In this document: piece after piece, positions 1 to 2,978 of the stretch
How positions within the stretch are numbered: the stretch's first letter is position 1
How the letters are laid out: every line of letters starts with the position of its first letter
Virus record (IMG/VR): IMGVR_UViG_2667527792_000007
DNA: 2,978 nt
Origin: a virus
Lineage: Duplodnaviria > Heunggongvirae > Uroviricota > Caudoviricetes
Strand: one strand, 5' to 3'
Translations under genes and position numbers: made by a program
The notes under the pieces: model-generated
What the model saw: only the letters and a program-made list of their open reading frames with translations
Told to the model about the DNA's origin: nothing
Databases searched by the model: none

Positions 1-915
1 GTGGCGCAGCTTAATGGTGTGGGTGAGAATCACTGGAGCGCGGCAATTTTAAAACGTGCGCTGGCGAATGACTCGGCATGGCACCGTTTAAGTGAGAAAG
101 AGTTCGCCCATCTGCAAACGTTGTTACCCAAACCACCGGCACATCATCCGCATTATGCGTTTCGCTTTATCGATCTATTTGCCGGAATTGGCGGCATCCG
201 TCGCGGTTTTGAATCGATTGGTGGACAGTGCGTGTTTACCAGCGAATGGAACAAACATGCGGTACGCACTTATAAAGCCAACCATTATTGCGACCCGGCG
301 ACGCATCATTTTAATGAGGATATCCGCGACATCACCCTCAGCCATCAAGAAGGCGTGAGTGATGAGGCGGCGGCGGAACATATTCGTCAACACATTCCTG
401 AACACGATGTTTTACTGGCCGGTTTCCCTTGTCAGCCATTTTCGCTGGCTGGCGTATCGAAAAAGAACTCGCTCGGGCGGGCGCACGGTTTTGCCTGCGA
501 TACCCAGGGCACGCTGTTCTTTGATGTGGTGCGCATTATCGACGCGCGTCGTCCGGCGATGTTTGTGCTCGAAAACGTCAAAAACCTGAAAAGTCACGAC
601 CAGGGTAAAACGTTCCGCATCATCATGCAGACGCTGGACGAACTGGGCTATGACGTGGCTGATGCAGAAGATAACGGGCCGGACGATCCGAAAATCATCG
701 ACGGCAAACATTTTCTGCCGCAGCACCGTGAACGCATCGTGCTGGTGGGTTTTCGTCGCGATCTGAATCTGAAAGCCGATTTTACTCTGCGTGATATCAG
801 CAAATGTTTCCCTGCACAGCGAGTGACGCTGGCGCAGCTGCTGGACCCGATGGTCGAGGCGAAATATATCCTGACGAAAGTTTCCTGTAATGGAAGATGG
901 GAAATATGTCGATAA
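1..915 (+). CDS. dcm: DNA-cytosine methyltransferase Dcm, N-terminal/catalytic fragment; Dcm homology ends at ~nt 876, followed by a 12-codon foreign tail ([12 protein letters not shown]) and TAA at 913-915. Probably a non-functional, pseudogene-like remnant.
   Basis: ORF 1..915 translation closely matches E. coli Dcm as recalled. Motif [11 protein letters not shown] at nt 166-195, motif [10 protein letters not shown] with catalytic Cys codon TGT at 430-432, motif VI ENV at 571-579. The GTG at nt 1 encodes an internal Val (..[13 protein letters not shown]..), so the true start lies upstream of the window. The remaining ~150-160 C-terminal residues of Dcm (472 aa as recalled) are absent. Confidence 0.9.
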
Positions 916-982
916 ATGGGCAATACGAACGACGGCAATGATTGCCAGAGAACTTGGTTAACAGAACAACAAAGCTGCCTGA
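878..982 (+). pseudogene. ral: 3' remnant of lambda ral (restriction alleviation protein), lacking start and N-terminal ~33 codons; in-frame TAA at 959-961 before the expected stop at 980-982
   Basis: Frame 2 from nt 881 reads [32 protein letters not shown], matching the C-terminus of lambda Ral as recalled (..[36 protein letters not shown], 66 aa). Upstream in this frame there is a stop at 872-874 and no Ral N-terminus. Position relative to ea10 matches lambda gene order. Confidence 0.6.
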
Positions 983-1026
983 TAGTGGCCTTTATTTTTG
1001 GCATAAATAACAGAATAAACACTGCA

Positions 1027-1058
1027 CTGTGTATTCATTCCAACGAGTGAATACACGG
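1027..1058. repeat. Inverted repeat in the ral-ea10 spacer: 9-bp perfect arms GTGTATTCA (1029-1037) and TGAATACAC (1048-1056), 10-nt loop; function unknown
   Basis: Read directly from the sequence. No T-run follows on the + strand, so it is not a classical intrinsic terminator in that direction. Confidence 0.5.
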
Positions 1059-1118
1059 AGCAATGTCGCTCGTAACTAAACAGGAGCCGACTTGTTCTGA
1101 TTATTGGAAATCTTCTTT

Positions 1119-1145
1119 GCCCTCCAGTGTGAGGGCGATTTTTTA
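1119..1145 (+). terminator. Intrinsic terminator-like hairpin upstream of ea10 (lambda tL2-cluster-like): GCCCTC-CAGTGT-GAGGGC followed by GATTTTTTAT
   Basis: Perfect 6-bp GC-rich stem (1119-1124 / 1131-1136), 6-nt loop, then a T6 run at 1139-1144. Location matches the terminator cluster between ral and ea10 as recalled. Confidence 0.6.
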
Positions 1146-1150
1146 TCTAT

Positions 1151-1155
1151 GAGGA
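1151..1155 (+). promoter_or_regulatory. Shine-Dalgarno (GAGGA) for ea10
   Basis: GAGGA lies 9 nt upstream of the ATG at 1165. Confidence 0.6.
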
Positions 1156-1164
1156 TATGAACAG

Positions 1165-1533
1165 ATGTCAAACATCAAAAAATACATCATTGATTACGAC
1201 TGGAAAGCATCAATAGAAATTGAAATCGACCATGACGTAATGACAGAGGAAAAACTTCACCAGATTAATAATTTCTGGTCAGACTCTGAATACCGACTCA
1301 ATAAACACGGCTCTGTATTAAATGCTGTATTAATCATGCTGGCGCAACATGCTCTGCTTATAGCAATTTCAAGCGACTTAAATGCATATGGTGTTGTGTG
1401 TGAGTTCGACTGGAATGATGGAAATGGTCAGGAAGGATGGCCTCCAATGGATGGTAGCGAAGGAATAAGAATTACCGATATCGATACATCAGGAATATTT
1501 GATTCAGATGATATGACTATCAAAGCCGCCTGA
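1165..1533 (+). CDS. ea10: Lambda Ea10 protein (early-left operon protein, annotated ssb-like; function poorly defined), 122 aa
   Basis: ORF 1165..1533 (MSNIKKYIIDYDWKASIEIEIDHD...MTIKAA) matches lambda Ea10 as recalled in length and sequence. SD GAGGA upstream; the 72-nt spacer to cIII matches lambda. Confidence 0.9.
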   Translation: MSNIKKYIIDYDWKASIEIEIDHDVMTEEKLHQINNFWSDSEYRLNKHGSVLNAVLIMLAQHALLIAISSDLNAYGVVCEFDWNDGNGQEGWPPMDGSEGIRITDIDTSGIFDSDDMTIKAA

Positions 1534-1556
1534 GCGCGGCGTTACCGCATACCAAT

Positions 1557-1580
1557 AACGCTTCACTCGAGGCGTTTTTC
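1557..1580 (+). terminator. Intrinsic terminator-like hairpin between ea10 and cIII (lambda tL3-like)
   Basis: 7-bp stem ACGCUUC (1558-1564) / GAGGCGU (1569-1575) with one G-U pair, 4-nt loop ACUC, followed by UUUU (1576-1579). Confidence 0.5.
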
Positions 1581-1593
1581 GTTATGTATAAAT

Positions 1594-1599
1594 AAGGAG
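1594..1599 (+). promoter_or_regulatory. Shine-Dalgarno (AAGGAG) of the cIII translation initiation region
   Basis: AAGGAG lies 6 nt upstream of the cIII ATG at 1606. Confidence 0.65.
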
Positions 1600-1605
1600 C
1601 ACACC

Positions 1606-1770
1606 ATGCAATATGCCATTGCAGGGTGGCCTGTTGCTGGCTGCCCTTCCGAATCTTTACTTGAACGAATCACCCGTAAATTACGTGACGGATGGAAACG
1701 CCTTATCGACATACTTAATCAGCCAGGAGTCCCAAAAAATGGATCAAACACTTATGGCTATCCAGACTAA
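1606..1770 (+). CDS. cIII: Lambda CIII, 54 aa (inhibitor of host FtsH/HflB protease, stabilises CII)
   Basis: Not in the ORF track because it is short. Manual translation from ATG 1606 gives [54 protein letters not shown], stop TAA 1768-1770, matching lambda CIII as recalled. Strong SD upstream. Confidence 0.9.
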   Translation: MQYAIAGWPVAGCPSESLLERITRKLRDGWKRLIDILNQPGVPKNGSNTYGYPD

Positions 1771-1882
1771 ATTCACTATCGCCACTTTTATTGGCGATGA
1801 AAAGATGTTTCGTGAGGCCGTCGACGCTTATAAAAAATGGATATTAATACTGAAACTGAGATCAAGCAAAAGCATTCACTAA
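1739..1882 (+). CDS. kil: Lambda Kil, 47 aa (host-killing protein that blocks FtsZ-dependent cell division)
   Basis: ATG at 1739 in the frame of ORF 1613..1882 gives [54 protein letters not shown] at 1725-1729. Overlaps cIII by 32 nt and gam by 46 nt, as in lambda. Confidence 0.85.
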
Positions 1883-2253
1883 CCCCCTTTCCTGTTTTCC
1901 TAATCAGCCCGGCATTTCGCGGGCGATATTTTCACAGCTATTTCAGGAGTTCAGCCATGAACGCTTATTACATTCAGGATCGTCTTGAGGCTCAGAGCTG
2001 GACGCGTCACTACCAGCAGCTCGCCCGTGAAGAGAAAGAGGCAGAACTGGCAGACGACATGGAAAAAAGCCTGCCCCAGCACCTGTTTGAATCGCTATGC
2101 ATCGATCATTTGCAACGCCACGGGGCCAGCAAAAAAGCCATTACCCGTGCGTTTGATGACGATGTTGAGTTTCAGGAGCGCATGGCAGAACACATCCGGT
2201 ACATGGTTGAAACCATTGCTCACCACCAGGTTGATATTGATTCAGAGGTATAA
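1837..2253 (+). CDS. gam: Lambda Gam (RecBCD inhibitor); long form 138 aa from ATG 1837, short GamS form (98 aa) from internal ATG 1957
   Basis: ORF 1837..2253 ([15 protein letters not shown]...[15 protein letters not shown]...[10 protein letters not shown]) matches lambda Gam as recalled. Internal SD AGGAG at 1945-1949 precedes ATG 1957-1959. The 5-nt gap to bet matches lambda. Confidence 0.95.
1945..1949 (+). promoter_or_regulatory. Internal Shine-Dalgarno (AGGAG) for the GamS start at 1957
   Basis: AGGAG lies 7 nt upstream of the in-frame ATG at 1957-1959 (MNAYYIQ...). Confidence 0.6.
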
Positions 2254-2258
2254 AACGG

Positions 2259-2978
2259 ATGAGTACAGCACTCGCAACGCTGGCTGGGAAGCTGGCTGAA
2301 CGTGTCGGCATGGATTCTGTCGACCCACAGGAACTGATCACCACTCTTCGCCAGACGGCATTTAAAGGTGATGCCAGCGATGCGCAGTTCATCGCATTGT
2401 TGATCGTCGCCAACCAGTACGGCCTTAATCCGTGGACGAAAGAAATTTACGCCTTCCCTGACAAGCAGAACGGCATCGTTCCGGTGGTGGGCGTTGATGG
2501 CTGGTCCCGTATCATCAATGAAAACCAGCAGTTTGATGGCATGGACTTTGAGCAGGACAATGAATCATGTACATGCCGGATTTACCGCAAGGACCGTAAT
2601 CATCCGATCTGCGTTACCGAGTGGATGGATGAATGCCGCCGCGAACCATTCAAAACCCGCGAAGGCAGAGAAATCACCGGACCGTGGCAGTCGCATCCCA
2701 AACGGATGTTACGGCATAAAGCCATGATTCAGTGTGCCCGTCTGGCCTTCGGATTTGCTGGTATCTATGACAAGGATGAAGCCGAGCGCATTGTCGAAAA
2801 TACTGCATACACTGCAGAACGTCAGCCGGAACGCGACATCACTCCGGTTAACGATGAAACCATGCAGGAGATTAACACTCTGCTGATCGCCCTGGATAAA
2901 ACATGGGATGACGACTTATTGCCGCTCTGTTCCCAGATATTTCGCCGCGACATTCGCGCATCCAGATCATTCTTATAG
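2259..2978 (+). CDS. bet: Lambda Bet (Red-beta single-strand annealing protein), C-terminally truncated: residues 1-235 lambda-like, then RSFL and TAG; 239 aa versus 261 aa in lambda
   Basis: ORF 2259..2978 (MSTALATLAGKLAERVGMDSVDPQELITTLRQ...QIFRRDIRAS) matches lambda Bet as recalled up to ..RDIRAS. Lambda continues SELTQAEAVKALGFLKQKAAEQKVAA, whereas the window continues RSFL then stop at 2976-2978. Confidence 0.9.
   Translation: MSTALATLAGKLAERVGMDSVDPQELITTLRQTAFKGDASDAQFIALLIVANQYGLNPWTKEIYAFPDKQNGIVPVVGVDGWSRIINENQQFDGMDFEQDNESCTCRIYRKDRNHPICVTEWMDECRREPFKTREGREITGPWQSHPKRMLRHKAMIQCARLAFGFAGIYDKDEAERIVENTAYTAERQPERDITPVNDETMQEINTLLIALDKTWDDDLLPLCSQIFRRDIRASRSFL

Follow-up and report, generated by a model that had tools for sequence, protein, structure and literature searches.

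The 2,978-nt stretch of DNA analysed here (the window) carries three pieces on its plus strand: an internal fragment of the host gene dcm (1..876), 2,083 nt from the interior of a wild lambdoid prophage's pL operon (880..2962) and a 16-nt non-phage tail, CAGATCATTCTTATAG (2963..2978). The dcm fragment corresponds to gene nt 100–975 in the sense orientation, begins at the GTG of codon 34 (offset 99) and is matched by the Pfam families DNA_methylase and DNA_meth_N. It is identical (876/876) to the dcm allele of E. coli of the O26, O103 and strain 7/2 type, so that the allele in the window is a natural B1-type allele at 100%. O26 strain RM10386 carries exactly this dcm allele and has an IS1 immediately upstream of it, between a truncated hchA and a truncated HD-domain gene (yedJ), indicating that the neighbourhood of dcm is rearrangement-prone in that lineage.

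The phage piece has the gene order ral′-ea10-cIII-kil-gam-bet′, all on the plus strand: the end of ral (880–961, with its TAA at 959–961), ea10 (1165–1533; Pfam DUF2528), cIII (1606–1770; Lambda_CIII), kil (1739–1882; Lambda_Kil), gam (from 1837 or 1957 to 2253; Gam, residues 41–138) and the first 234 codons of bet plus 2 nt (to 2962; RecT). The elements pL, nutL, N and exo are absent from 880–2962. The gam frame is open from the ATG at 1837 (138 aa), as in the lambda record; in E. coli CUPS03, RefSeq annotates only the 98-aa form that starts at the ATG at 1957. The TAA of ral′ replaces AAA (Lys) of lambda, which shortens Ral by seven residues and creates an HpaI site, GTTAAC (957–962). CUPS03 has the same ral allele, annotated as a 59-aa Ral-family protein, and the stop codon is a natural variant that is unrelated to the joints.

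Compared with the lambda reference NC_001416, positions 880–2962 carry 27 substitutions; compared with the att-lambda prophage of E. coli CUPS03, they carry 0 differences (2,083/2,083 identical). These two results identify the piece as a wild prophage allele and not laboratory lambda. The initial annotation had described a lambda-derived segment bounded on both sides by non-lambda DNA; the bounding stands, and the assignment to lambda itself does not. In CUPS03, the prophage sits at att-lambda adjoining ybhC, with int next to ybhC. CUPS03 was considered as the source lineage and rejected, because its dcm differs from that of the window at 12/876 sites. The same chromosome contains, at 1,874,000–1,905,000, a roughly 30-kb multiresistance island between fliE and yedK, with a mer operon, mph(A), sul1/qacEdelta1, aadA5-dfrA17 with intI1, catA1 and tet(B); IS1 stands at its bounds and IS26 inside, and the island is unrelated to the bet joint.

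At the left joint (870..879), CCTGACG of dcm (870–876) is followed by phage AAA (877–879). The heptamer matches dcm at 7/7 positions and phage (CCTGAAG) at 6/7, and thus forms an imperfect 7-nt microhomology; such a 6/7 overlap has a computed chance probability of about 1.3e-3. The joint reads …ATCCTGACG-AAA-GTTTCC…, the phage T that follows AAA having been deleted before G880, and it contains neither a restriction site nor an IS. The fused Dcm′ ORF enters ral out of frame, continues for 13 codons and ends at the TAA at 913–915. The methylase loses its C-terminal third here, which would inactivate this copy of dcm.

The bet′ ORF (2259..2978) encodes 239 aa: Bet residues 1–235, then R-S-F-L and a TAG stop at 2976–2978. 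When aligned to the 261-aa lambda Bet, the product is identical at 235/235 residues, after which the 26 C-terminal residues are exchanged for four. The novel joint inside bet that had been read from the letters of the window, with 26 codons replaced by RSFL and a stop, is therefore real in the sequence, and the alignment to lambda bet that had been suggested as a check places the divergence after GCATC, at nt 2962. Identity of the DNA to phage stops at this same nucleotide in all 356 phage records and in all matching E. coli genomes, so that the divergence is no effect of chance or polymorphism. In the alignment, GCATC is followed by CAGATCATTCTTATAG in the window and by GTCAGAACTGACACAG in lambda and the closest prophage; the joint splits codon 235 after its second base, giving TCC here and TCG in phage, both Ser. 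A GATC had been noticed at the point of divergence, and it does lie at 2965..2968, inside the foreign tail and starting 3 nt past the last phage base; the phage parent reads GCATCGTCAG there and has no GATC. The bet stop overlaps the exo start in lambda and in CUPS03, whereas the window has 16 nt of non-phage DNA instead. The suggestion that exo is absent or displaced accordingly agrees with the sequence, to the extent that exo does not directly follow bet.

To trace the tail, the final 30 nt of the window were compared by sensitive blastn with 5,426 complete E. coli genomes. A single locus was returned, the antisense strand of nrdA, in 2,821 genomes and with the top score of 35 bits. Positions 2958–2978 (GCATCCAGATCATTCTTATAG) match the nrdA antisense strand (GCATCCAGATCTTTCTTATAG, codons Y583–A589) at 20/21 nt, a match that spans the full tail plus a 5-nt overlap, GCATC (2958..2962), common to phage bet and antisense nrdA. 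The single mismatch is A2969, which is T in all 5,426 genomes, none of which carries the A variant as a natural nrdA allele; it would correspond to NrdA K585N. The BLAST expectation is E=6 over 28 Gb of about 5,400 redundant genomes, or about 1e-3 per genome, and an analytic estimate for a fixed 21-mer matching at 20/21 gives a chance probability of 1.5e-4. By contrast, a 15/16 match to the tail by itself would turn up about 0.12 times in each genome and is not significant; it is the 5-nt GCATC extension, common to both parents, that carries most of the weight. The assignment depends on one 20/21 match, to a third piece of which only 16–21 nt are visible. In a diverse 7.3-Gb database, a 35-bit match has E=2 and would be unremarkable, so that the match owes its significance solely to lying in the same organism. 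A reversed-sequence control 30-mer returned no match in the same kind of search. On these comparisons, the tail probably derives from antisense nrdA, and the most probable source of the foreign DNA joined to bet is a host gene and not an IS or vector.

The same 30-nt search against plasmid and phage records again placed nrdA at the top; the other matches were scattered 17–20-nt chance matches to unrelated bacteria. No IS, vector, plasmid or phage candidate for the tail was obtained from these records by blastn at E<=10, and none of them matched the tail over >=18 nt except at nrdA. Resumption of dcm or of nearby DNA after a simple insertion was tried and rejected, there being no match within 6 kb on either side of dcm with 3–4 mismatches allowed. 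Another part of the prophage and a local inverted copy were likewise rejected, the 16-mer being absent from the rest of the window and, even at 3–4 mismatches, from lambda and from 50 kb around the CUPS03 prophage. Scanned exactly against 2.9 million IMG/VR contigs, the 16-mer gave 9 matches, a chance level, with unrelated flanks and no repeated element, so that a common sequence of phages or IS elements was rejected too. To our knowledge, the tail does not resemble FRT, loxP, the ends of Tn5, Tn10 or Mu, Illumina/Nextera adapters or the termini of common E. coli IS elements.

If the nrdA origin is right, the GATC would be nrdA's own, within CCAGATCT, and RSFL-TAG would be antisense nrdA read in the bet frame, where the A and T alleles give the same peptide. 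Past nt 2978, the sequence would then run on as antisense nrdA, beginning GTATCGATCGGCAGGATCCC….

Both joints appear to be new to the record. When the whole window was compared by megablast with PLSDB plasmids and with the 5,426 complete E. coli genomes, neither joint was spanned by any record, and exact 30–33-nt scans for both joints in genome, metagenome and viral contig collections gave 0 matches. Neither fusion protein, Bet′ (239 aa) or Dcm′ (304 aa), has an exact counterpart in an assembly index; for Bet′, this negative extends over gene calls equivalent to about 15 billion proteins. Outside the joint-proximal changes, the sequence is that of natural alleles throughout, with 2,959 nt (876/876 in dcm plus 2083/2083 in phage) matching exactly.

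The window begins with an in-frame GTG (nt 1–3, dcm codon 34) and ends with the bet′ stop codon (nt 2976–2978). Such a start and end are unlikely to coincide by chance, so the borders of the window are perhaps those of gene calls; in that case, further discontinuities may be hidden outside it. Codon 34 would be chosen as a start in gene calling only where the initial 99 nt of dcm are lacking or broken up, and the contig may therefore end, or have another discontinuity, immediately before the window.

The best explanation, to which we give about an even chance of being correct, is that three unlinked, co-oriented pieces of an E. coli genome have been joined in the window as a patchwork: dcm, DNA copied from the pL operon of a resident prophage and, most probably, antisense nrdA. 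The end of bet would then be one breakpoint of a microhomology-mediated illegitimate rearrangement, as opposed to an IS insertion, a cloning scar or a variant form of Bet. In strain 7/2, dcm (2,226,030–2,226,905) and the matching nrdA segment (2,609,795–2,609,815) are both on the minus strand, and in CUPS03 the pL operon at att-lambda is oriented as dcm is; all three pieces (dcm sense, pL operon, nrdA antisense) are therefore co-oriented on the chromosome. Of the two replichores, one holds dcm and nrdA and the other holds att-lambda. Followed in the direction of the window, nrdA lies behind dcm (strain 7/2 frame). A deletion cannot produce this order, and nrdA is essential; the joint of a tandem duplication can produce it; the duplicated interval from dcm to nrdA would be about 384 kb in the same frame.

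The joints have microhomology in the 2–15-nt range: an imperfect 7 nt on the left and GCATC on the right, the latter conditional on the nrdA assignment. Each is followed within 4–7 nt by a small change, a 1-nt deletion on the left and a T-to-A substitution on the right. Microhomology and junction-proximal errors in otherwise exact sequence are characteristic of a 3′ end that moves to a new template, is extended and then moves again, and we infer that the mechanism was most likely template switching. A 3′ end replicating through dcm would have moved onto the prophage, copied 2.08 kb of its pL operon as filler, roughly the size of one Okazaki fragment, and then returned to nrdA, behind dcm on the same replichore. 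The outcome would be the novel joint of a direct tandem duplication with templated filler, while dcm, the prophage and nrdA, an essential gene, would each still be present intact elsewhere. From standard replichore geometry, the plus strand of the window would be the nascent leading strand in the dcm–nrdA replichore and would have lagging-strand polarity at att-lambda. Long-distance template switching has been proposed for E. coli amplification junctions, which have 4–15-nt imperfect microhomologies over long distances and, in some cases, 1–3-bp indels beside the junction (PMC1428787), and the idea has been generalized in the MMBIR model (PMC2621351). In this specific form, a natural joint of a large tandem duplication (about 0.38 Mb) in a wild B1-type E. 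coli, made by two consecutive long-distance template switches of the MMBIR type with a 2.08-kb insertion and error-prone synthesis directly after each switch, the proposal is an unlikely one that we put forward tentatively.

The same features would arise from polymerase template switching in vitro, and the joints might have formed during MDA or PCR of one strain's library DNA or through some other, in silico artefact of the source record. We regard a chimera of this kind as a real possibility, though a doubtful one. It would account for three unlinked loci within 3 kb, for the fact that both joints and both fusion proteins are unrecorded in the collections searched, for a tail of just 16 nt with the window stopping right after the joint, and for an A2969 variant found in 0/5,426 genomes; microhomology, moreover, is typical also of template-switch chimeras. 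Set against this are the exact matches to natural alleles (876/876 and 2083/2083), which do not have the look of noisy data, and the unbroken course of the contig through the left joint, which implies consistent read support. Chimeras from MDA are mostly inverted and join nearby sequences, whereas all pieces here are direct and megabases apart. Two routes to an artefact can be excluded: a de Bruijn-graph misjoin needs about 20 or more shared bases (k−1), and the joints share 5–7; blunt ligation or read concatenation predicts no microhomology.

The remaining explanations concern the right joint itself. The 20/21 match to nrdA could be due to chance and the tail could be a rare IS or transposon end, another mobile element or unrelated DNA, in which case the phage piece would be a decayed prophage remnant of the ordinary kind. 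The insignificance of the tail by itself speaks for this, as does its composition (31% GC, AT-rich like much horizontally acquired DNA); BLAST is also blind to a bare exact 16-mer at these database sizes, so a match to a chromosomal IS end could have escaped. None of the 9 IMG/VR matches is a repeated element, though E. coli prophages with resident IS are abundant in that collection, and the plasmid and phage records gave no match of at least 18 nt except nrdA. The start of the tail is unlike any IS end known to us; the left joint independently has microhomology and no IS; and dcm is no known prophage attachment site, the matching prophage being at att-lambda. An origin other than nrdA is accordingly quite improbable. 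The initial annotation had left open whether the GATC was a cloning or recombination scar, and lambda red genes are indeed widely cloned; a red fragment ligated at a GATC-type site (BamHI, BglII, BclI or Sau3AI) could have left AGATCA (2964–2969), which resembles a BglII/BclI hybrid site. The GATC is, however, absent from the phage parent (GCATCGTCAG), lies 3 nt beyond the last phage base and is native to the candidate nrdA sequence (CCAGATCT), which together argue against a restriction or ligation scar. The 27 SNPs that separate the piece from laboratory lambda and its identity to a wild prophage, a left joint that is out of frame and lacks a restriction site, and the absence of both joints from every PLSDB plasmid weigh in the same direction, and a laboratory construct is very improbable. 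Hardly credible at all is a natural Bet allele with a short alternative C terminus, or a local sequencing error or frameshift in a normal bet-exo. Lambdoid recombination modules are mosaic, which would permit such an allele, but 356 phage records and thousands of prophages lose similarity exactly at 2962, no indel aligns the 16 nt after the joint to bet, the exact protein is unrecorded and residues essential for function would be missing.

The truncated protein keeps the annealing domain (residues 1–177), as judged by a Pfam RecT match at E=2e-33 and 178/178 identity to PDB 7UJL. Of the C-terminal domain (about residues 195–261), helices 1–2 are kept and helix 3 is missing, and the structures 6M9K and 8TFU align only to residue 236. 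In Redβ, the C-terminal domain is a three-helix bundle in which F249, L250 and K253 are needed for binding to Exo and SSB and for recombination in vivo, and in the crystal structure L223, I227, F249 and L250 form the Exo-binding pocket; the substitutions F249A, F249D and K253A reduce dsDNA recombination to <=0.2% of wild type, and Redβ 1–250, with 11 residues fewer, has neither Exo binding nor ssDNA or dsDNA recombination (PMC6393309). F249, L250 and K253 are all lost in Bet′. Since the 1–250 protein is already dead, a protein that ends at residue 235 should be recombination-dead; the expectation that this Bet is likely impaired thus agrees with the Redβ data (PMC6393309). In vitro, DNA binding and annealing might still be possible.

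Expression of Bet′ is unlikely, because pL, nutL and N are absent and the only transcription upstream is that of dcm, which would have to pass through three terminator-like hairpins with T tracts on the plus strand between dcm and cIII–bet′ (974–989, 1117–1138 and 1557–1576). We take these three hairpins to be probably the lambda tL2 terminators; in total, the window has 11 terminator-like sites, compared with 3.2 expected in shuffles. A partner exo directly downstream, under pL/N control, is not present in the window. Bet′ is almost certainly an inert remnant, and the truncated bet at the joint is ordinary genome or assembly debris and no new system.

For the biology of Red, the consequences are small, Bet′ being a predictable loss-of-function remnant. 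If the rearrangement took place in vivo, the window would be a natural, sequence-resolved case of a complex microhomology rearrangement with an insertion from a third locus and junction-proximal errors. There is ample documentation of such rearrangements from laboratory amplifications under selection and from human copy-number variants, but little from wild bacterial genomes. If the window is a library or assembly chimera, its value would be that of a warning: gene calling would yield a 'novel' 239-aa Bet and a Dcm fusion protein that no organism has.

Comparison with known systems places the window as follows. Bet′ is identical over residues 1–235 to the functional lambda Red Bet (PDB 7UJL, 6M9K and 8TFU) and differs from it in having neither residues 236–261, which make up helix 3, nor an exo partner nor the pL/N control region; with the C-terminal domain and the exo partner failing, it is not a functional member of a Red system. 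Cryptic lambdoid remnants such as Rac, DLP12 and Qin resemble the window in their partial early-left-operon gene sets, their truncated ORFs and their lack of lytic capacity. These remnants sit at attachment sites, with att/int ends or IS scars, whereas the 2.08-kb piece lies inside dcm, far from att-lambda, has non-att ends and exhibits no decay, being 100% the allele of an intact prophage. The lambda gal, lambda bio and Spi− phages likewise have illegitimate host–phage joints at short homologies, and red-gam is a classical zone for their endpoints. In lambda gal and lambda bio, however, the joints use host DNA that flanks att (gal or bio) and one att-proximal phage arm is retained; in the window, neither phage arm is kept, and the host DNA comes from dcm and probably nrdA. 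Aberrant excision of the lambda gal/bio type is rejected because the host partners do not flank att-lambda. There are also the amplification and duplication junctions of E. coli (PMC1428787, PMC2621351), which the window resembles in its imperfect microhomology, its distant co-oriented partners and its small changes nearby; the order of segments here likewise fits a direct duplication. The two joints fit this known class of microhomology-mediated illegitimate junctions, as a new, unrecorded instance. Compared with amplification in the lac system, the span would be about 0.38 Mb instead of 7–32 kb, and 2.08 kb of filler would come from a third locus on the other replichore.
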